Shown here: piece by piece, positions 24,433 to 35,567 of the stretch | How positions within the stretch are numbered: the stretch's first letter is position 1 | How the letters are laid out: each line of letters opens with the position of its first letter | Program-made: the position numbers and the translations under genes | Notes under the pieces: model-generated | Database searches by the model: none | Told to the model about the DNA's origin: nothing | What the model saw: only the letters and a program-made list of their open reading frames with translations | Assembly: GCA_902767565.1 (NCBI GenBank) | Contig: CACXHY010000001.1 | Location: 166,217-230,216 of the forward strand | Direction: 5' to 3' | Length of the DNA: 64,000 nucleotides | DNA from: an uncultured Eubacteriales bacterium | GTDB taxonomy: Bacteria; Bacillota; Clostridia; Christensenellales; Aristaeellaceae

Positions 24433-24960
24433 TCACTCCGCAGGGACAAAATCTATATCGCTGATAAAATCCACCAGCGCCTGCACTTCCGCATCGGTCA
24501 GCTGGTCACCGGTCATCACGAACTCCAGCTCGTAGCCCCGGTAGATCGTGTAGATGTCCACAAAGCCTTCGCCCGTCACCTTCAGCAGGCGGGTGCCGTA
24601 GGCCGTCTCCAGATCCTCAAAGACGACCTCTTCGTCCATCTCCCGGAAGCTGTCGCGGATCTCCTCCACGGTCGCCTCATCCACATCGTTGAAGCGCTCC
24701 ACGTCGGCGTATTCTTCATTATAGGCAATGGACACGGTCACGACCGTCCTGCCCTCTCCGGCCGTGAGGATGCCCACCAGGTTCAGCGCGGTATCGGCCA
24801 CGGGCATATAGGTGTAGCCTTCGGGCACCCGGGTCCGGATGCCGAAGGACCCGCCCACGTTCAGCGTGCCGATCTCGGTCTTCACGGTGTCCTCACCCAT
24901 AGCGCAAGCCGCGCACAGGACCATGACCAGGCCCAGCGTCAGCGCGATGATTCTCTTCAT
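24433..24960 (-). CDS. secreted/lipoprotein of unknown function (acidic)
   Basis: MKRIIALTLGLVMVLCAACAMG signal peptide. Confidence 0.5.
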   Translation of the reverse strand: MKRIIALTLGLVMVLCAACAMGEDTVKTEIGTLNVGGSFGIRTRVPEGYTYMPVADTALNLVGILTAGEGRTVVTVSIAYNEEYADVERFNDVDEATVEEIRDSFREMDEEVVFEDLETAYGTRLLKVTGEGFVDIYTIYRGYELEFVMTGDQLTDAEVQALVDFISDIDFVPAE

Positions 24961-24991
24961 GTTCGTTTATCTCCCTTCGAATGCTTTCGCT

Positions 24992-25591
24992 TCACTGCAC
25001 ATAGCTCTTGTAGATAAAGCCGACCATGCCGGTCGCGGGGTCGGTCACCTGGTACCAGTCCTTCAGCTCGGCAATGACCGTCAGCTCGTAGTTGCCGCCG
25101 AAGGTGGCCATGGCTTGCGCGTTCTTGCTGGGGAACCACCGCAGATACACCCAGCCGCTGGCCCGGGTGGGACGCACGGTCACCGTATAGGGCGTCACGG
25201 TCTTCGCGGACGCGGTCAGGGTATTCATCTGGGAGACCGTGGTCGCGTTCTTGGTGGTGAACTCATTCGCCGGCTTCTGCTGCGCGGCGTCGGCGTTGTA
25301 GGGAGCGGGCTTCTGCTTCACCAGATAGCGGTACATGACGTAGCCGGTGCGGTTGCCGTAATCCAGCATCGCCCAACCGTCCTTGTGGCCGTAGATGATG
25401 ATCCTTTGGCCGTATGCCAGCGAGCCGATGACATTGCCGTCATCCGCGGCATTCATGCTGGAGCGCACCAGCAGGGGCTTCCCGTTCTTCGTGTAGACGT
25501 ACATCTCCGTCCCCTGGCTTTCCGACAGGGCGGCGGAAACGAGAAGCATCAGCGTCATCGCGGCGAGTACCAGAGCGATCGTTTTTCTCAT
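24992..25591 (-). CDS. secreted protein with two bacterial SH3-like domains
   Basis: Signal peptide MRKTIALVLAAMTLMLLVSAALS; two SH3_3-like repeats (GYVMYRYL / VGFIYKSYV); start at internal ATG 25591. Confidence 0.55.
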   Translation of the reverse strand: MRKTIALVLAAMTLMLLVSAALSESQGTEMYVYTKNGKPLLVRSSMNAADDGNVIGSLAYGQRIIIYGHKDGWAMLDYGNRTGYVMYRYLVKQKPAPYNADAAQQKPANEFTTKNATTVSQMNTLTASAKTVTPYTVTVRPTRASGWVYLRWFPSKNAQAMATFGGNYELTVIAELKDWYQVTDPATGMVGFIYKSYVQ

Positions 25592-25888
25592 TTCAGGTCC
25601 TTCCTTTCCCGCGCTGCTCTCTCTACCGGAACCGCGGCGTCCATTCCTCCGCCGTTTTTGATCGCTCCGGCATGTTTCGCGCATCCGCATTTTACACCAG
25701 CAGTGTCCTGAAGTCAACCGTGTGTCCGTGCGTGATTTGGCTGCATGGACCCACGGAGGATCTTCCGTGTGGGCAGTTTCTTCGGCAAGGCGCTCATGGA
25801 TCAAAACGGAAAGCACCCCGAAGAAAAGAGAACCGGCGAACCGGCTCCCTTATGTGTGCCTTATGATGTCATCGGGCCCGAACGCGGA

Positions 25889-27535: not shown

Positions 27536-30361
27536 TCAACAGATGGCTGACGTATCGATCCAGACGGCAGGGCGGACGGCGTTCGTACTGCCTGCCGGAC
27601 TGCCTTTTACGCGGCCGTTTTCGGTTACCTCGCATGGAAAGCCCTTGCTTTCCAACGAGCGAAGCCACCAGCTGACGGTCATGCTGCCGTCCATGAAGTA
27701 ATCGCCGCTCGTATGCCATCTGACTTTGGAATACGCACGCCCGGTGGGCAGGCACATCCACTCGTCATCAGAGACAAAGCAGCGTTTCGCTTCCGCATAA
27801 CTCAGCAGGAACACCCTGTCCCGGGTGTCACGGCCGTCATCGGCACTGCTCTCCGGCCGGCTCTGGCTTCGGCTGTTATCCACATTCGACAGCAGGATCG
27901 CCTGCTGCTCCTTATCGCTGAATGCCGCATGCAGGAAGGTCTCGTTCAGCCATCTGCGTATATCGCTGTTTTCCCAGGGTTCATTCGTTTTGGCCCACCA
28001 GCGGTTCCAGTCGCTGTTTTCATCCTCCTCCGCTTCTTCACTGTATTCCGGCTCATCCCCATCGGCAAATTCGTTATACTGATACGCATCCACGCCGTAA
28101 ACGCTGATCAGCAGCGAGCGATGATCAGTTGCGTCGTGTTCCAGCACCTTCCACAGGATCGGAGCGGCGGATCCCGGCTCATCCGCAAGCGGATAGGAAC
28201 CGAAGGCCACGATCCTCCCGGGTGTCCCGAAGGGATCAGCGTCCGGAGCATGGCGCATCTTGTCCTGTTCCAGCATCGCGTCCACGTCCCGGTACCCTTT
28301 GATCTGCTCAAACAAGGCTTTCGCCCGACCGTACATGCCCGCGCTGTAGTACGCCATGCCTGATCCGTATTTTTCCTCCCGGGCGTCAGGCGCTTCGAGT
28401 ACGCGTTCCCGGGCCTGCTTCGTCTCCGCGTCCAGCCTGGCGCAGTTGGCCTCCTCGTCCGCCAGGCGCTGCGTGGCCTGACGCAGCCTGGCCTCCACCT
28501 CGGCGCGCCGTTTGCCGCTGAACAGCCCGCGCAGCTGGCTCAGTTCCTCATTCAGGCGCCGCACTTCGGCGGAGGCCTGGTTCCTGGCGGCAACCGCTCT
28601 CTGCGACGCCTGGATCGCCTTCTGCGCGGCCTGATCCGCATTCTGATACGCCGAGCGCTGCTCCTCACAGCGGCGCCGGATCTCATCGGCCAGCCCTTCC
28701 GCCTGCCGAATCCCCTGCCGCCATTCGGCCTGACGCCTGACCAGAGACTCCGCCTTTTCCCGAAGGCGCAGCATGTCCTCTCTTCTGACTTCGCGATCGC
28801 GCTCTTCGCACTCCTGTTTCAGCGGTGCAAAGCTTTCGACGGCGATGAACTCCCGTCTTTTGTTTTCCACCATCCGGACCTGGTAAACGGTGTTCGCCTG
28901 CCGCAGCTGCTGCCGAAGGATCTCCATCGCGCGGGACTCACATTGCCGTATCAGTTCCTCCGTGGCATCGGTACGGACGCTCCTCAGCTCCTGTCTGGCC
29001 TTCATCAGGCCGTCCACCGAAGCGAGCGGATCGTTCACCAGCGCCGCCGCGCGCCCGACGGTCCTCCGGTCCTGCTCCTCCCGTTTTTCCAGGTGGGCGA
29101 TCCGCGCCTGCAGCACCCATGCCAGCCACTCCCGGGCGTCTCTCAATCCTATCTCACCGGGGATCCGCTCCAGGCGCATCCTGAGCTGCCCGTCGGAAAA
29201 GCGAAGCGCCTTCCGGTAGTCCTTGTCCTCCTGCAAGTCGGGTCTGAGCGCGATCAGCCGGCTGTCGCTGTCGCACCGGTACCTGGTCAGCAGACGCAGC
29301 CAATAGGCCTGGGCGTTTTCCGGATCCTTGTCCAGCACGCGGTCGATATACTCGTCCGCCTTCGCCCATTCCTGATCCTGCAGGAACAGTTCAGCGCGCC
29401 TGAGCAGCGGCGCGGTCTCGCTCGCGTTTCCGTTTCCGTAACCGACCGCCGCGGGCGCGGGCGCCATCTCCTTCCCGCACAGCTTCACCACGCCCCGGGT
29501 CAGGTCCTGCAGCCAGCCCAGCTTTCCCATATCCTGGGCCTGCAGCTGGCGGAACTCCTTGGGGATATCGTAGGCGTCCACGTCCTTGAAGCAGGGGATC
29601 AGCGTCTTGCTCCTGTCCGTCTTCATCATTGACAGGAAGCGCATCCATTCGTTCTTCACCCACACCGCGTCGTAGTATTCGAATTTCGTACCGACCGCGA
29701 GCATAACTTTTGCCGAGGACAGGGCCGCGTAGATGTAAGGCTCATACTGCTGCCCCAGCTTGTCCTCCAGCGTGATCCGGGCGAAAAACACCTTGAGTCC
29801 CCTGCCGGTCAGGCTGTCGTATATGTCCTGGGCCAGCACGCTGTCCTCGGTGCGGCCGCCCTCCTCCGCCGTTTCCTTGTAGCAGATGAACACGTCGTAG
29901 GGCGCTTCATTGGCCACGATCGTCAGGATCCCCTTCTGGATGCGGTCAATGGCTTTCGCCTCGTCCCGGTACAGCCGCCGCGATATGGCGTCCGCATATT
30001 CGCAGGCCTGTTCAAAATCGCTGTCATCCAGAATGGACGCGGTCAGGGTCCGGTGGCAGGTGGGCACTTTGTTCCCCGTGGCCGGATCGTCCACATATTC
30101 GATGCCGTACTTGCACAGGCACTGGCCCCAGTACGCTTCCGCTTCCTCAGGGAATTCCGCCGTGATGGAGACGTACACAGCCGCCGCCCGGTCGAATTCC
30201 GCATTCATCCGCAGCCGGTTCGCCCGATTGAACAGGTTGGCCCTTTTTTCGTCGTCCGCCGCGGGGACGGTCTGCTGCGTGCCGCAAAAGTCGCATTCAC
30301 AGATCGTGCTCCCCGCCGTGATGTTCAGATCCCCGCCGCACATTTTGCATTTCAGGATCAT
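27536..30361 (-). CDS. large zinc-ribbon / TPR-like / TIR-domain / coiled-coil / DUF6273-like protein (candidate NADase effector)
   Basis: N-terminal CKMCGG...CECDFCG zinc ribbon; TPR-like EAEAYWGQCLCKYGIEYVDD; TIR domain ~29490-29910 (DVFICYKETAEEGG...LKVFFARITLEDKLGQQYEPYIYAALSSAKVMLAVGTKFEYYDAVWVKNEWMRF); long coiled coil; C-terminal ILWKVL...WWLRS...PAVWID domain; RBS GGGAGGA before ATG 30361. Confidence 0.75.
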   Translation of the reverse strand: MILKCKMCGGDLNITAGSTICECDFCGTQQTVPAADDEKRANLFNRANRLRMNAEFDRAAAVYVSITAEFPEEAEAYWGQCLCKYGIEYVDDPATGNKVPTCHRTLTASILDDSDFEQACEYADAISRRLYRDEAKAIDRIQKGILTIVANEAPYDVFICYKETAEEGGRTEDSVLAQDIYDSLTGRGLKVFFARITLEDKLGQQYEPYIYAALSSAKVMLAVGTKFEYYDAVWVKNEWMRFLSMMKTDRSKTLIPCFKDVDAYDIPKEFRQLQAQDMGKLGWLQDLTRGVVKLCGKEMAPAPAAVGYGNGNASETAPLLRRAELFLQDQEWAKADEYIDRVLDKDPENAQAYWLRLLTRYRCDSDSRLIALRPDLQEDKDYRKALRFSDGQLRMRLERIPGEIGLRDAREWLAWVLQARIAHLEKREEQDRRTVGRAAALVNDPLASVDGLMKARQELRSVRTDATEELIRQCESRAMEILRQQLRQANTVYQVRMVENKRREFIAVESFAPLKQECEERDREVRREDMLRLREKAESLVRRQAEWRQGIRQAEGLADEIRRRCEEQRSAYQNADQAAQKAIQASQRAVAARNQASAEVRRLNEELSQLRGLFSGKRRAEVEARLRQATQRLADEEANCARLDAETKQARERVLEAPDAREEKYGSGMAYYSAGMYGRAKALFEQIKGYRDVDAMLEQDKMRHAPDADPFGTPGRIVAFGSYPLADEPGSAAPILWKVLEHDATDHRSLLISVYGVDAYQYNEFADGDEPEYSEEAEEDENSDWNRWWAKTNEPWENSDIRRWLNETFLHAAFSDKEQQAILLSNVDNSRSQSRPESSADDGRDTRDRVFLLSYAEAKRCFVSDDEWMCLPTGRAYSKVRWHTSGDYFMDGSMTVSWWLRSLESKGFPCEVTENGRVKGSPAGSTNAVRPAVWIDTSAIC
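29490..29910 (-). other. TIR domain region within the 941-aa protein
   Basis: DVFICY (beta-A), SAKVMLAVGT (beta-D-like), WVKNEW (alpha-C-like, putative catalytic Glu). Confidence 0.6.
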
Positions 30362-30386
30362 GACCATTCCTCCCGAATCCTTCGCT

Positions 30387-31082
30387 TCACTTGCTGATGG
30401 CGGCTACCCGGTTGCGCTCTGTGAGGGTGTCGAGCACTTTCGTGCAGAGCTTTCCGGCCCCGTCCCTGTCGCCGTCCGTGATGGCCTGCTGAAGCTCCTT
30501 CATCTGCTGCAGGATGTCCTCCTCCAGCGGCACGGTCTCAGCGGAGGAGACCGGATCGCTGAAGCGCAGCTCCTCGGCCAGCTTCTTCACCTTCGCCTTC
30601 AGCTCCCCTTCGGGGCACACGGAGGCCAGGGACGCAGCCAACGACTGCAGCCCCCGCATGAAGGTGACGTCCTTTTTCAGCTGTGCGTCCTGCCGGACCA
30701 CCTCGTCCCGAACGGTCTCCGTGGTGATGCATCCCACCACCGCGGCGGCGAACAGCAGGGCAGAGGGGATCACCGCGCACCAGGCCGGTACCGTCACGAA
30801 GATGCACAGCACCATCACGATGAGACTGAGGATCAGCTGGACCGCCAGGTAGATCAGCCCCACCCTGGCCACGGAAAACCCATAGAAGCGGCTCCGGGCA
30901 TCATTCTTCCCCATTTCCGCCGCATTGAAAACATAAAGCTGGAAAACGATCGCCAGCAGGCCGAAGCCGAAGGAAAGCCAGAAGGCCGCGTTCCGCTTTG
31001 CCGGAAGAAAGAGGGAGATCATCACGAACACGCCGGCGACGACGAGCATCAGCACGATGGCGCGCAGGGTAAGCTTTTTCAC
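30387..31082 (-). CDS. small 4-TM membrane protein with cytoplasmic coiled-coil tail (unknown function)
   Basis: Four hydrophobic helices in the first 130 aa, then a charged, helical C-terminus; 4-nt spacer to the SPFH gene and 19 nt to the TIR gene. Confidence 0.6.
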   Translation of the reverse strand: MKKLTLRAIVLMLVVAGVFVMISLFLPAKRNAAFWLSFGFGLLAIVFQLYVFNAAEMGKNDARSRFYGFSVARVGLIYLAVQLILSLIVMVLCIFVTVPAWCAVIPSALLFAAAVVGCITTETVRDEVVRQDAQLKKDVTFMRGLQSLAASLASVCPEGELKAKVKKLAEELRFSDPVSSAETVPLEEDILQQMKELQQAITDGDRDGAGKLCTKVLDTLTERNRVAAISK

Positions 31083-31085
31083 GGG

Positions 31086-32915
31086 TCATTCTCCTCTCTT
31101 CCGTCCGCAGTTGCCGCAGAAATTGCCGGTGATGCCCTTCTGACCGCACACGCAGTCCCACGCGGCCGGAGGCTCCGGACGGCGGGCGCCGCAGTTGGTG
31201 CAGAAGTTGCCGGTGATGCCCTTCTGTCCGCAGCCGCAGTCCCAGGTCTGCACAGGTGCAGGCCGCCGGGCGCCGCAGTTGCCGCAGAAATTGCCCGTGA
31301 TGCCCTTCTGCCCGCAGCTGCAGTCCCAGGTGTCCGCGGACGGGGCGGCGGAGGCGGGAGACGCGGGCTGTGCCTGGATGTTCATCGCCTGCATGATGCC
31401 GCCGAGCTGCGGGGCGATGGCACCGGCAGCCGCCATGCCGACCCCGAGGCCCAGCATGTCGCCGATGATGCCGCTGCCGCCGCCGGACGAGATCACCGGC
31501 CCCATATTACCGATGCTTTCCGCATAGGCCTTCTGCACCTCGGCCTGCAGCACATCCTTCTGGCTATATCCCTTGGCCTTCATGATCTCGGCCTCCGTCA
31601 GACCGGCCATGCGCTGCGCCTGAGCCTCTGCCTGCGCCTCGATGACCCGACGTTCCGCGGCCCTGCGGGCGATCTCGGTCTCGGTGGTCTGGCGCTGGAT
31701 CTCGGCCTCCCTGCGGGCCGCCTCAATGGCTGCCTTGCTCTGCTCCTCCGCGGTCCGGTACATGGTCTCGCTCTGTGCCTTGGCGGTCTTCACCGTGGCC
31801 TCGGCCTGATACATGCGGGTCTGGAGCGTGATGGTATGGAGCTCGCGGATGCGCTTGAAGTTCGGGTCGTCCTCCGGCAGCACCACATTGGTCACGTAGA
31901 ACTGCGGGATGGTCAGGCCGTAATCCTCGAATCCCGGAGCGATCGCGTCCCGCAGGCTGGCGGAGAGCAGGTCCAGTTTCGTATCGATCTCCAGGATATC
32001 GATGGCTTCCTTCGTGATGATGGAAGCCAGGTTCGTCTTGACGGCACTGGTGATGAGCGGGCGGAAGGAGGCCTGGATCGACTTCGTCAGTCCCGGGCCT
32101 TCTTCCCAGGAGATGCCCTTCATGGTGCCGACCAGTTTGACCAGCAGCTTGCGGGAGTTGGAGACCTGCACGTTCATCTCACCGGAAGCGCCCAGCTGCA
32201 GCGGTGTGCCGGTCAGCGGATCGATAAAGCGGGCTTTCTCCGGAGTGCCCCACTTGATCGCCATCTGCACGGTCTTGTTGATGAAATAGACCTCCGAGTG
32301 AAAGGTGCCTTCCGTATCGGTGGGCAGGGGGCTGACCCGCTCCAGCATGGGCAGCTTCTGCGTCTCAAGGGTGTAACGGCCGGGTCCGAAGAGATCCAGA
32401 GCCTGACCGTCGCGGAAGAAGATAGCCTCCTGGCTCTCGTGGACGATCAGCTGGGAGCCGTAATTGAAATCCTCGATGGGATGCTTCCAGACGAAGACGC
32501 TGTTGTCGCCCTCGTATTTGATGATGCTGGCCAGACCGTCCCGGCGGGTCTGCTCCGCGATCAGGCGCTCCTGCACGTCGTTCACATAATCGCAGACCGG
32601 GCAGGTAAAGCTGACGGCGCCTTTTGCCGTGCTCAGCCGGATGCCGCACTGGCGGCAGGAGAAGGCCTGCTCCCGCTGTCCGTCCGACAGGGCGTCGATG
32701 GAGGCATTGCAGACCGGGCAGACCGCCTTGGAGCCCTTGGTCTGATCATAGACGATCTGGTTGGAACAGCGCGGGCACTTGACCGAAGCCATTTTATCCA
32801 GCTTCAGGTCGATGGTGTATCCGCAGCTGCAGGGGATCTTCTTTTTCGCGAAGATCCCGGTCTTTCCCTGGGCATACTTCCCGCACGCGGGACACGCGAT
32901 CGCAAACTGTGCCAT
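31086..32915 (-). CDS. SPFH/band-7 domain protein with N-terminal and tandem C-terminal zinc ribbons (COG4260 / YdjI-like, flotillin-like)
   Basis: Four CxxC pairs in the first 150 aa; central SPFH domain with coiled coil; C-terminal WDC(x)CGQKGITGNFCxNCGxRRP repeated three times; RBS GGGAGGAAAG before ATG 32915. Confidence 0.75.
   Translation of the reverse strand: MAQFAIACPACGKYAQGKTGIFAKKKIPCSCGYTIDLKLDKMASVKCPRCSNQIVYDQTKGSKAVCPVCNASIDALSDGQREQAFSCRQCGIRLSTAKGAVSFTCPVCDYVNDVQERLIAEQTRRDGLASIIKYEGDNSVFVWKHPIEDFNYGSQLIVHESQEAIFFRDGQALDLFGPGRYTLETQKLPMLERVSPLPTDTEGTFHSEVYFINKTVQMAIKWGTPEKARFIDPLTGTPLQLGASGEMNVQVSNSRKLLVKLVGTMKGISWEEGPGLTKSIQASFRPLITSAVKTNLASIITKEAIDILEIDTKLDLLSASLRDAIAPGFEDYGLTIPQFYVTNVVLPEDDPNFKRIRELHTITLQTRMYQAEATVKTAKAQSETMYRTAEEQSKAAIEAARREAEIQRQTTETEIARRAAERRVIEAQAEAQAQRMAGLTEAEIMKAKGYSQKDVLQAEVQKAYAESIGNMGPVISSGGGSGIIGDMLGLGVGMAAAGAIAPQLGGIMQAMNIQAQPASPASAAPSADTWDCSCGQKGITGNFCGNCGARRPAPVQTWDCGCGQKGITGNFCTNCGARRPEPPAAWDCVCGQKGITGNFCGNCGRKRGE
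31108..31345. repeat. three tandem 84-nt direct repeats inside the SPFH gene (encoding 28-aa zinc-ribbon repeats)
   Basis: Repeat units start at 31108, 31192 and 31276 (period 84) with ~85% identity between units. Confidence 0.85.
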
Positions 32916-33096
32916 TGTTCTTTCCTCCCGATCAGTGTATCGCTTATACCTGCGCGATCCGGCGCATGGCGGCTGACGACGGTCTGTCACGCGTCAGCCC
33001 GGAGAAGCCGCCGGTACGCGTGTCCGGTTGCCGGAACGGCTGTCCCGTCACCGCAGCGCAAGCCTCTGTCTGCGGCAGATCATTTCACTATTTTGG

Positions 33097-33125
33097 AGTA
33101 TACCACAATTGCGGCGCGGATTCAA
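33097..33125 (-). promoter_or_regulatory. near-consensus sigma70 promoter (TTGAAT-17-TATACT, TG-extended) of the SPFH/4-TM/TIR operon
   Basis: Minus strand reads cTTGAATccgcgccgcaattgTGgTATACT; about 175 nt upstream of the SPFH gene start. Confidence 0.6.
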
Positions 33126-33393: not shown

Positions 33394-34794
33394 CTATGCG
33401 CTTTGCCGTGCCGCGTCCCGGGAGAGGCGCCGCTCGACCGCGCTGAGGTCTTCCAACTGCGTATAGAAAGGCGGCGTTCTTTCCCGGATGATCACGCCTT
33501 CCTCATACCGCATCAGCGACAGCTGGGCAGGCGTGATCAGAGGATCGCCGAGGGGGTTGTGACCGCACAGCTGGCTGAGTTTCAACCTGAAGCTTTCATC
33601 CTTGGCGATGTTCAGCGCGATCCAGGTGGAGCAATTGGCGGATATCGTTCCCGCCGCCGCGCCGTATACGCCTTCCAGCTGGCTGTAGCTCTGGATCGCG
33701 AGGACATACCGGATGCCGCGTGACCGGGAGATGGTCAGCGCCGTTTCCAGCCCTGGGATGGCAGGCCGGATATTGCACAGCTCATCCAGGTATATCTCCG
33801 TGCGGACCGGCAGGCGGCCGCCATGCTTCATGGCGCAATCGTTCAGGTCCTGGATCATCTGCGTCAGGAGCATCCCCTGCAGGCCGCCCAGCGCTGTCGA
33901 GTCATCCGGAAGGCTGATGTAGAGCACCGTCGGGCTGAGACCGATCTCCTGAAAGTCCAGGGCTTTGGGACGGGTCATCATCTCCAGGATATCGTCCCGG
34001 GCCGTAAAGTGCGTGATATAGCTGTTGAAGCAGGTCAGCACGTTGCCCCGCGTTACGTTGGAGCCATTCCGGAAGCCTTCCAGATTCCGCCGGGCCGGTG
34101 AATCCTTCGGGAGTTCGTCCGCAGAACTGAACAGCGGCGAAAGACTGTCGTAATCGCTGTCTGCCGTAATGGAAGCAGCCATTTTCAGCACTACGGACAG
34201 TGTCAGATCCCGGTTTGACTCCCAGATCGTGTAACAGATGCCCCGGAACAGGCTTGCGGAGGTGTTGCGCCAGAACGGATCGGAGCGGCTGCTTGGACCG
34301 TCATTAAAAACGGCGGCGATCAGGTCCTCCAGCAGTTTGACCGCCTTGTTCCGCTGCTTTCCGCCCTGCTTGTAAAGCGTGTTGATCTTCAGGAAGGGAT
34401 TCCAGGGGCTGCCCTTCTCGGGATCCCGGAAATCGACCCGCCGGATGGTGTATCCGCATTTGCGGGCCAGGTCCGACGTGGCCGCTTCCAACTCGCCCTT
34501 CACGTCAAAGACCACATAGGAGCGTTTGCTGCGGGCGGAGAGGGAATAGAGAAGCGACGGAATGATGATCAGCCGGGACTTGCCGGTGCCGGTGGCGCCG
34601 ATCACCAGCACATGGCGGCACTCATCTCCGCCGTCGGCCAGGACCCGGCCCCCGTGGTTGAGTAGGATGACGCCACCCTCCTCGCGGGCGTCGTCCCACG
34701 CGCCCTGCACGCAGCCCGGCATGCCGGTCAAGTCCGCATCGGAAGCCCATCCGGAAGAAGTATGCAGTCGATTCAGATACTTCTCGTAGTACAT
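33394..34794 (-). CDS. TraG/VirD4/TrwB-family (type IV coupling protein-like) ATPase, soluble form without TM helices
   Basis: Walker A VLVIGATGTGKS; FDVKGELEA motif; DPFWRNTSASLF; C-terminal region typical of T4CP all-alpha/TraG-D_C; no N-terminal TM segments; RBS AAGGAGG before ATG 34794. Confidence 0.65.
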   Translation of the reverse strand: MYYEKYLNRLHTSSGWASDADLTGMPGCVQGAWDDAREEGGVILLNHGGRVLADGGDECRHVLVIGATGTGKSRLIIIPSLLYSLSARSKRSYVVFDVKGELEAATSDLARKCGYTIRRVDFRDPEKGSPWNPFLKINTLYKQGGKQRNKAVKLLEDLIAAVFNDGPSSRSDPFWRNTSASLFRGICYTIWESNRDLTLSVVLKMAASITADSDYDSLSPLFSSADELPKDSPARRNLEGFRNGSNVTRGNVLTCFNSYITHFTARDDILEMMTRPKALDFQEIGLSPTVLYISLPDDSTALGGLQGMLLTQMIQDLNDCAMKHGGRLPVRTEIYLDELCNIRPAIPGLETALTISRSRGIRYVLAIQSYSQLEGVYGAAAGTISANCSTWIALNIAKDESFRLKLSQLCGHNPLGDPLITPAQLSLMRYEEGVIIRERTPPFYTQLEDLSAVERRLSRDAARQSA

Positions 34795-34805
34795 GGCATC
34801 CTCCT

Positions 34806-35567
34806 TCATTCGACGGAGCCGAACCCGATCCTCCTGGAGCCGGGGCATCTGTCGGGCTTTCCCGTCCTCGTCCTGTTGAAGCGATTCATGTAGGAGTAGG
34901 GGTCCTCCAGCGCCGAACGAAGGCTGTCTTCCGTGATGATGTCATTCCCGGCGCCGCAGGAGTGCAGAAAGCGCACGGCATCAAACCCCTTGTCGCCCTC
35001 CACCTCTCTCAGCGCGGCTTTCAGGAGCCGCGCCGCTTCATCGGTCGCGCAGGTCATGCCCGCCTTCCCGAGCATCACGCGGAGAGAGGCATGCCAATGG
35101 CGGCTCCTCACTTGCTCCACGTCCAGCCTGCCGTCAAAATCCAGGCAGTCGGCTGCCGTCAGACATTCGTTTTCCGTCGATACGCCGTAGAATACCGTGA
35201 CGCATTTCGAGGCGAGGCCATCGCGGATGGCCATGACCTCGCCCAGAGCCTTCAGGCGGTGACGGTCCTCCGGGTGTTTCAGCAGGCCGGAGATGTTCAG
35301 CAGAACCAATCCGCAGAAATGGCTCTTTCTCCCCGCCGCGGCGATCAGTCTTCCGCACAGGGCGGCCAGATCACGAAAACTGTTGGGGTCCTCATCCCCG
35401 GTGATCTCCATGGAGACCATGGGGCAGCTGTTCAGAACGGTGCGTTCTGGAAAACCGTCGGGTATGGAAGCATTGATGCCGCAGATGATTTCCTCCAGAT
35501 CATCTTTCGGGCAGTTGAGCAGGATCCGGGAACCGGGTGGTTTGGCAAAGAGCTGCGCAATCGTCAT
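34806..35567 (-). CDS. hypothetical protein (253 aa), co-operonic with the VirD4-like ATPase
   Basis: 12-nt spacer to the downstream gene; no recognisable motifs. Confidence 0.45.
   Translation of the reverse strand: MTIAQLFAKPPGSRILLNCPKDDLEEIICGINASIPDGFPERTVLNSCPMVSMEITGDEDPNSFRDLAALCGRLIAAAGRKSHFCGLVLLNISGLLKHPEDRHRLKALGEVMAIRDGLASKCVTVFYGVSTENECLTAADCLDFDGRLDVEQVRSRHWHASLRVMLGKAGMTCATDEAARLLKAALREVEGDKGFDAVRFLHSCGAGNDIITEDSLRSALEDPYSYMNRFNRTRTGKPDRCPGSRRIGFGSVE

Follow-up and report, generated by a model that had tools for sequence, protein, structure and literature searches.

TIR domains are an immune currency shared by bacteria, plants, and animals, and SPFH/flotillin proteins are ubiquitous membrane organisers whose roles in bacteria remain vague. 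Type II Thoeris, CBASS, and Pycsar have transmembrane (TM) effectors. To our knowledge, very few defence systems have been tested in the Clostridia that dominate the gut and rumen. Here, we describe a three-gene locus encoding an SPFH protein, a protein with four TM helices (4-TM), and a TIR protein, located in a stretch of 64,000 nucleotides (the window, positions 166,217 to 230,216 of contig CACXHY010000001.1) from an uncultured Eubacteriales bacterium. Two published descriptions bear on it: YdjI, the SPFH protein of PspA-YdjGHI, has a low-complexity stretch as well as a C-terminal zinc finger (PMC8581546), and cytoplasmic C-type-lectin (CLec) sensors fused to TIR or CHAT effectors are found in putative conflict systems (PMC10907252). 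On the best reading of our data, the locus is a TIR-based conflict system, hitherto undescribed and equipped with a new partner module, that is widespread in gut Clostridia.

The three genes are co-directional on the minus strand and, as read from their open reading frames (ORFs), form one tight operon. Gene 1 (31086..32915) encodes the SPFH protein of 609 aa, and gene 2 (30387..31082) the 4-TM membrane protein of 231 aa, defined by its ORF, its AF2 model, and its conserved columns. Gene 3 (27536..30361) encodes a 941-aa product that Pfam, modelling, and hydropathy describe as a cytoplasmic protein composed of a zinc ribbon, a helical domain, a TIR domain, tetratricopeptide repeats (TPR), a charged linker, and DUF6273. 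The original prediction, made from the letters of the DNA alone, took the three genes for a single transcription unit and this stands, the ORFs being as described and the gaps short.

The SPFH, 4-TM, and TIR genes are a conserved unit. Relatives of the TIR protein are encoded in at least 561 species-level genome stretches, from Oscillospiraceae, Acutalibacteraceae, Ruminococcus, Christensenellales, Lachnospiraceae, Blautia, Roseburia, and Solobacterium; the cultured carriers are Pseudoflavonifractor capillosus An827, Blautia sp. HCP3S3_H10_2, Lachnospiraceae bacterium NE2001, and Ruminococcaceae bacterium YRB3002. Two homologues with 40-49% identity keep the order SPFH, ~214-aa protein, TIR/DUF6273. 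In the 80 best TIR-anchored loci from a scan of one genome per species, where gene calls are heuristic, as in all relatives' loci, an SPFH gene was identified in 57 (35 of 43 when only loci of ≥15 kb are counted) and a 4-TM gene in 44, with the TIR gene directly after the 4-TM gene in 31. Clustering of 953 ORFs from TIR-anchored loci gave three recurrent families only, TIR (82 loci), SPFH (55), and 4-TM (50), and no fourth among these ORFs. The 4-TM protein, which has at least 472 relatives in metagenomes, leads to the same arrangement. With a gap cut-off of 600 nt, the SPFH gene lies immediately upstream in 45 of the 55 informative 4-TM-anchored metagenome loci, and the other 10 also hold an SPFH gene, with one gene between in nine and a gap of >600 nt in one. 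A TIR gene starts no more than 1.5 kb downstream of the 4-TM gene in 40 of 58 loci; it often lies upstream instead. All three genes occur together in 32 of 46 loci. How far SPFH has diverged from the window's protein correlates with how far 4-TM has (rho 0.68, p = 3e-6); for the TIR protein, there is no such correlation. The original prediction had staked itself on whether SPFH/4-TM pairs ever occur with a TIR-containing partner, and they decisively do, across hundreds of genomes.

Two variations on this arrangement were seen. In one lineage (L113, L151, L153, L156-L158, and L160-L162), an extra gene between SPFH and 4-TM encodes a protein that is weakly similar to the TPR part of the TIR protein (aa 290-400) and has no TIR module. 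Other loci (L015, L032, L045, and others) carry three or four TIR paralogs with neither SPFH nor 4-TM in the available flank; because such loci exist, satellite receptor arrays may sit apart from the SPFH/4-TM pair.

The identification of the TIR domain (29525..29893, minus strand; aa 159-281 of the 943-aa ORF) is supported by Pfam (TIR_2, 2.8e-10) and by structure. A search of PDB sequences with the family profile yielded TPR matches only and fold comparison was therefore needed. Foldseek matches the region with probability 1.0 to the TIR domains of L7, TIR-STING, SPARTA TIR-APAZ (3.0 Å), and AbTir (TM-score 0.76), and the fold is closer to SARM1 and plant TIRs than to ThsB. The original prediction located a glutamate at the catalytic position, and this residue is Glu238 (codon 29648..29650, minus strand) in a W-V-K-N-E motif. 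When aligned by phmmer, WVKNE coincides with WCLNE in SNC1, a plant protein, and with WCLME in L6, and W234, N237, E238, and W239 are invariant across 123 paralogs. The aligned Glu is the catalytic residue of the plant and SARM1 TIRs; judged by this alignment, Glu238 occupies the catalytic-glutamate position of TIR NADases. Its invariance in all 123 paralogs argues for an enzyme rather than an adaptor.

A model of the first 420 residues (pLDDT 84.8) shows a zinc ribbon, a helical domain with a β-hairpin, the TIR domain, and TPR. The zinc ribbon (30284..30349, minus strand) is formed by C5, C8, C23, and C26, which are invariant in the 123 paralogs (translation and alignment A2), as the predicted N-terminal ribbon requires. 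A TPR-like segment had also been placed in the N-terminal region; this needs correction, since the region contains a single weak TPR-like hairpin (E = 0.038) and is in part (YGIEYVDD) modelled as a β-strand. TPR are clearest after the TIR domain, at aa 313-400 (family profile positions 313-420), in a segment (29162..29425, minus strand) identified by a profile match to consensus TPR proteins, weak Pfam TPR matches, and helical hairpins in the model. They are followed by a charged, mostly helical linker (28202..29161, minus strand), whose composition (39% E/K/R/Q over aa 400-720) is consistent with a coiled coil. The C-terminus is DUF6273 (27554..28021, minus strand; aa 783-938 of the 943-aa ORF), which had been predicted and is matched by Pfam (1.1e-20); with a C-type-lectin-like fold according to the literature, it is a putative ligand-binding domain. 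The TIR protein has no TM segment and no signal peptide (maximum hydropathy 1.02) and is therefore predicted to be cytoplasmic.

The linker of DUF6273-type paralogs is poorly conserved except for a nearly invariant LxGLFSGKKR motif at its middle. In the window, it reads GLFSGKRR from aa 612 (GLFSG, aa 612-616, at 28514-28528), and G612, L613, and F614 are invariant in alignment A1. The motif might act as a hinge, be a site of processing, or mediate an interaction. An acidic insertion, EFADGDEPEYSEEAEEDENSDWNRWW, is found inside DUF6273 (28060-28150, aa ~740-770) and is absent from 16/16 homologues in the same alignment.

The TIR genes occur in arrays. There are between one and five TIR paralogs in a locus, and 39 of the 80 loci have at least two. 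The paralogs share an N-module of ~300-400 aa, in which, besides the zinc ribbon cysteines and the W234-V-x-N-E-W239 motif, W78, E88, Y89, and R104 are invariant (123 sequences). An exhaustive HMMER search with the 300-aa N-module collected 3,926 cluster representatives (50% identity) at E ≤ 1e-30; the module is N-terminal in all of them, and the proteins range in length from 485 to 1,448 aa. What follows the N-module differs. The C-terminal parts of 119 paralogs were assigned by Pfam to an RCC1-like propeller (42), DUF6273 (36), and a CIDE-N-like domain (14), the others including LRR_5, MORN, and Lipocalin_3. CIDE-N, found in these 14 of 119 C-termini at loci L009-L087 (best E 8e-10), is a domain of metazoan apoptotic DNA-fragmentation factors. 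One homologue, P0043 (1217 aa), contains two tandem zinc-ribbon/helical/TIR modules in a single polypeptide (alignment A1).

C-terminal parts are exchanged between near-identical N-modules. We compared proteins between samples whose N-terminal 300 aa are at least 93% identical; in the 282 such pairs, the N-module has a mean identity of 97.5%, and the middle region together with the C-terminal 220 aa a mean of only 48%, the C-terminus being <60% identical in 210 pairs. Some of the exchanged pairs occupy the same slot directly after the 4-TM gene (L143 versus L144: N-module 96.7% identity, C-terminal 14.5%), and loci of the same species have flanks that are 97% identical and swapped C-terminal halves. 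Paralog arrays and C-terminal exchange within species are the signature of an arms race, not of housekeeping.

DUF6273 is known from the literature as a target of diversity-generating retroelements (DGRs) in gut phages. In the DUF6273-type genes of relatives, hypervariability affects the ~150 nt that immediately precede a conserved 3' block; these encode residues rich in N/D/Y/S/G, as is typical of a DGR variable repeat (VR). No template repeat (TR) of the gene's 3' 700 nt was found in the 64-kb window, no adenine-biased repeat pair in 169 loci (±8-10 kb) or the window, and no recurrent reverse transcriptase gene among the clustered ORFs of TIR-anchored loci. The DUF6273-type alleles are discrete and common to many samples, and their variable codons vary at third positions too. 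Given the missing TR and adenine-biased pairs, the discrete shared alleles, and the third-position differences, we reject an active local DGR in the window and these loci; a DGR acting in trans from elsewhere in the genome, or an ancestral one, may be involved. In viral contigs, the conserved 3' end of the VR has only two matches, both within genes. The window's own C-terminal domain, with its private acidic insertion, looks non-DGR-like.

The partner pair is far less variable. The SPFH protein consists of zinc ribbons, an SPFH domain, an Ala/Glu-rich helix, a Gly-rich low-complexity segment, and further zinc ribbons. Its assignment to the SPFH/band-7 class, made in the original prediction, is secured by the Band_7_1 match (31869..32474, minus strand; PF13421, 1.5e-36; aa 173-374 of the 634-aa ORF, equal to aa 148-349 of the 609-aa protein). 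The protein has six N-terminal and six C-terminal Cys knuckles and was therefore assigned three ribbons at each end. Those at the N-terminus (32592..32894, minus strand; CPAC/CSC, CPRC/CPVC, and CRQC/CPVC) rest on the knuckle count, the translation, and sub-threshold zinc-ribbon Pfam matches, and those at the C-terminus (31107..31322, minus strand; WDCxCGQKGITGNFCxNCG) on Tandem Repeats Finder, knuckles, and translation; the three predicted at the C-terminus are thus present, but the four predicted at the N-terminus become three. An 84-nt × 2.7 tandem repeat (31105-31331, 84% matches) codes for the C-terminal ribbons, whose copy number appears to vary across SPFH homologues (lengths 569 to 665 aa). 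The hydropathy profile shows a single weakly hydrophobic, Gly-rich segment, and identity is 70-80% across the top 120 database clusters.

The AF2 model of the 4-TM protein (pLDDT 86.6) shows four TM helices, the last of which extends into a cytoplasmic helical bundle; the predicted four helices are thus recovered, but the predicted coiled-coil tail is modelled as this bundle. Conserved alignment columns define the motifs SRFYGFP, RFSDPVS, and ERNRxC, and the cytoplasmic part has invariant polar residues (R125, E127, Q131, S175-D-P177, and R223-N224). Foldseek found no fold in the PDB that matches the model at E < 0.09.

We tentatively favour a three-component conflict system, most likely directed against phage. 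Our model positions the 941-aa protein as a cytoplasmic sensor-effector in which a constant N-module (zinc ribbon, helical/Cys-His domain, TIR, and TPR) would be tied by the long charged linker to an exchangeable ligand-binding domain, DUF6273 in this locus and an RCC1 propeller, LRR, MORN, or lipocalin-like domain in the paralogs. The YdjI-like SPFH protein, predicted to be soluble and bearing six zinc ribbons, would form with its obligate 4-TM partner an oligomeric platform on the inner membrane face, onto which the receptors would dock through their conserved zinc-ribbon/helical N-domain. We suggest that binding of a foreign ligand, presumably derived from a phage, to the C-terminal domain would induce TIR-TIR assembly and that the assembled TIRs would cleave NAD+ through Glu238, arresting growth of the cell in an abortive infection. 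We infer a role in defence, as the trio fits a conflict system by virtue of its constant TIR with an invariant Glu, exchangeable binding domains, arrays, strain diversification, and conserved membrane-associated pair.

The same components could be ordered differently, as in Thoeris. The TIR receptors would then be sensors only that, once a ligand is bound, turn NAD+ into a small nucleotide signal, which the 4-TM bundle or the SPFH protein would read, and SPFH/4-TM would be a shared effector that permeabilises or depolarises the membrane. This is possible, but we consider it unlikely. One conserved partner module with one to several divergent TIR genes is the Thoeris arrangement, the partner sits in the membrane, as do the TM effectors of type II Thoeris, CBASS, and Pycsar, and conservation is much higher in SPFH/4-TM than in the TIR genes, as would suit a shared effector; the invariant polar cytoplasmic motifs of the 4-TM protein could form the binding site. 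However, Pfam, NCBIfam, and PADLOC detect no SLOG, Macro, SAVED, or CARF domain in the partners, Foldseek against the PDB gives nothing for the 4-TM model, and the ThsB models have no match in the trio.

A further, still speculative, possibility that we regard as doubtful is a Toll-like-receptor-style repertoire in gut Clostridia, in which arrays of cytoplasmic TIR receptors with modular, strain-specific recognition domains (propeller, lectin-like, or LRR) would assemble on, or signal through, a flotillin-like SPFH cage anchored by the 4-TM protein, and SPFH/4-TM would be a new effector or signalosome that reads a TIR-made nucleotide through an undescribed fold. If true, this would be the first direct role of an SPFH protein in prokaryotic immunity.

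Several observations weigh against a conflict system, and some of them are what would be expected of a housekeeping module for envelope stress or membrane organisation akin to PspA-YdjGHI, in which the TIR proteins would be adaptors or regulators that recruit clients through their C-terminal domains and have no part in immunity. Only the best-scoring loci were analysed, with the same species sampled many times among them, which means that the counts lack independence. None of the three proteins has an NCBIfam family or a match in PADLOC-DB v2 at E ≤ 0.01, and the 4-TM protein has no Pfam family either; this agrees with the original prediction that the trio belongs to no named system, and it would also suit housekeeping genes. 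The unusual conservation of the SPFH protein might likewise be expected of a housekeeping machine. The locus is chromosomal and stands among housekeeping genes (Ffh, M28 peptidase, glgA, nitroreductase, DUF2264, and an ABC transporter), and the GC3 of the trio equals that of its neighbours, a native composition with no sign of recent transfer. The N-module has no match in the phage and plasmid collections searched, and no carriage of the system on phages or plasmids was found there. At other loci, only ~6% of the sampled neighbour genes match defence models, a modest enrichment at best. The SPFH protein is, moreover, of the same Band_7_1 type as YdjI and shares the features described for it: a soluble character, a low-complexity region, a C-terminal zinc finger, and dependence on membrane-protein partners. 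Against a housekeeping role, there is no pspA in the operon or among the recurrent neighbours, the catalytic-position Glu is invariant in 123/123 paralogs, and paralogs form arrays whose C-termini are exchanged between near-identical N-modules within species. We conclude that a housekeeping role is rather improbable.

It is very improbable that the TIR proteins are exported to act on host cells or competitors (as with TcpB and TirS), their adhesin-like C-termini serving to target them and SPFH/4-TM aiding their release. RCC1_2, BspA-type LRR_5, and DUF6273 are common in extracellular and phage receptor-binding proteins, hypervariable binding domains would also suit surface or host interaction, and the carriers are gut commensals. 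The absence of a signal peptide and of TM segments from the TIR protein speaks against export, and so does the invariant zinc ribbon at the N-terminus, since a folded metal site is poorly compatible with Sec export; further, no secretion-system gene is conserved nearby, and the window's VirD4-like gene is not a conserved partner. Chance adjacency of unrelated genes, for which only the lack of an annotation linking the three could be cited, is refuted and has practically no likelihood left, as the same three families are linked across dozens of distinct lineages whichever gene, TIR or 4-TM, serves as the anchor.

The original prediction saw a defence-island flavour in the window; this is not upheld, as the neighbours are housekeeping genes, GC3 is native, and the VirD4-like operon is not conserved with the trio. 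At 48 other loci, the 149 flanking ORFs examined include a retron-type reverse transcriptase, AbiEi, SIR2_2, MzaA-like, and PDC-S01/S22 genes, four resolvases, and two integrases, which is suggestive at most of an enrichment in defence or mobile genes. The DUF6273 domain has one weak phage match, and in one IMG/VR contig, the system adjoins two serine recombinases. The retron-type reverse transcriptase (310 aa; YADD and VTG motifs; PADLOC RT_II-A 2.5e-83) lies beside the TIR/SPFH system in a single Clostridia metagenome-assembled genome (L031, 2671-3600).

Two neighbours were considered as additional components and rejected. An HSP70/MreB-like ATPase with an MZB zinc-binding domain is encoded just upstream of the first TIR paralog in L003-L006 (1-1223) and L089 (4863-6920), with two large serine recombinases beyond it in L089; these loci come from one abundant human-gut species, and the gene is linked to the system in that species only. 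In the window, a two-gene unit upstream of the trio (33394-35567, minus strand) encodes a 484-aa VirD4/TraG-like coupling-protein ATPase without TM helices and an overlapping 253-aa protein without a family. The ATPase matches Pfam T4SS-DNA_transf (1.7e-40), falls below the cutoff of NCBIfam conju_CD1115 (220 bits, cutoff 250), and has weak PADLOC matches to mad8/HerA; no other conjugation genes were seen among the annotated genes nearby. We reject the unit as part of the system, since it was found with the trio in the window's own strain only, plus one weak match in L028; it could be a separate module of an accessory or defence-like kind. Between the window's glgA and aldo-keto-reductase region, two genes (24433-25816, minus strand) encode small proteins that are probably secreted or lipoproteins; one product contains two bacterial SH3 domains, and no family matches the other.

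Details of the operon differ slightly from what had been predicted. The SPFH gene starts at ATG 32915, with the ribosome binding site GGGAGG in front of it; a longer ORF with a GTG start, reaching up to 32990, is unlikely to give the true start. The 4-TM gene starts at GTG 31082, preceded by AGAGGAG, and the TIR gene at ATG 30361, 7 nt past GGGAGG, giving a 941-aa product identical to database protein P0001. The gaps are 3 nt (SPFH/4-TM) and 25 nt (4-TM/TIR) where 4 and 19 nt had been given, the value of 19 nt holding only with the alternative ATG 30367. The promoter-like site (33097..33125, minus strand; sigma-70-like, TTGAAT-17-TGgTATACT with a TG extension) was read from the sequence and recovered by a consensus scan with 9/12 matches, but sites of this type number two in 7 kb against a shuffle expectation of 1.5 ± 1.2; the promoter is therefore plausible and statistically unsupported. 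Between it and the SPFH start codon lies a 5' leader of ~180 nt (32916..33096, minus strand, by sequence reading). Rfam has no family for the leader at E ≤ 1, and a riboswitch or leader RNA was rejected on this ground. The terminator proposed for the upstream operon is visible as a GC-rich hairpin, CCCCGGGACGG...CCGTTCCCGGGG, followed by TTTTG, 3' of the VirD4-like gene, but is missing from the list of the terminator scan because it has only four T.

Through this module, TIR and SPFH are genetically linked in gut and rumen Clostridia, in no fewer than 561 species and across ~3,900 protein clusters. If it is a defence system, it would be a large unrecognised family in the phage-host ecology of the gut and a natural case of modular receptor diversification, with one constant TIR module and many sensor cassettes, as well as an entry point to the role of Band_7_1 SPFH proteins. 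If its role is instead in envelope stress, it would be the first machine of this kind to include an enzymatic TIR. In the full-text literature, subscription titles aside, no publication came up that connects SPFH with TIR in a bacterial system.

Of the described systems, PspA-YdjGHI, to which the original prediction likened the trio, shares an SPFH protein of Band_7_1 type encoded beside an integral membrane protein; the low-complexity region and C-terminal zinc finger published for YdjI are both found in our SPFH protein, so that only this part of the likeness, drawn from the published description, stands. In both cases, a partner starts with a zinc ribbon (YdjG, MIISYKCPNC; trio, MILKCKMCGG). 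However, the trio operon has no pspA, its SPFH gene comes first, its SPFH protein carries additional zinc ribbons (three at the N-terminus and two at the C-terminus), and its zinc-ribbon partner is a TIR protein without TM segments.

The DGR C-type-lectin systems (Kaur et al. 2020, PMC7159879; Dore et al. 2024, PMC10907252) also combine a cytoplasmic sensor of C-type-lectin fold (putative in the trio) with effectors that include TIR, and in both cases the variability of the sensor suggests changing ligands. The trio differs in having no STAND or MoxR NTPase and, in the 169 loci and the window, no reverse transcriptase or TR; its alleles are discrete and shared, and its diversity arises through exchange of the whole C-terminal module.

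Single-protein TIR sensors and NADases (Bacillus subtilis SpbK, AbTir, and the SARM1 type) share with the trio the TIR fold, the catalytic-position Glu, and the union of sensor and TIR in one polypeptide, whereas the receptors of the trio are tied to SPFH/4-TM, stand in arrays, and carry exchangeable RCC1, C-type-lectin-like, or LRR domains. Thoeris likewise has a TIR with the catalytic-position Glu and a conserved partner, which can be membrane-bound (type II ThsA), with one to several divergent TIR genes. In contrast, the trio has a TIR fold nearer to SARM1 and plant TIRs and no match to a ThsB model, its partner is SPFH plus 4-TM with no SIR2, SLOG, or Macro domain (Pfam, NCBIfam, PADLOC, and PDB fold search), and its TIR proteins, of 500-1,400 aa, have a zinc-ribbon/helical N-domain, TPR, and large C-terminal binding domains. 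By gene and domain content, the trio thus does not appear to be a member of Thoeris (no ThsA-type domain and no ThsB match), and it is not a PspA-YdjGHI operon (no pspA) and not a DGR/NTPase system. By analogy, we suggest that it works most like the TIR sensor-effector proteins and Thoeris.

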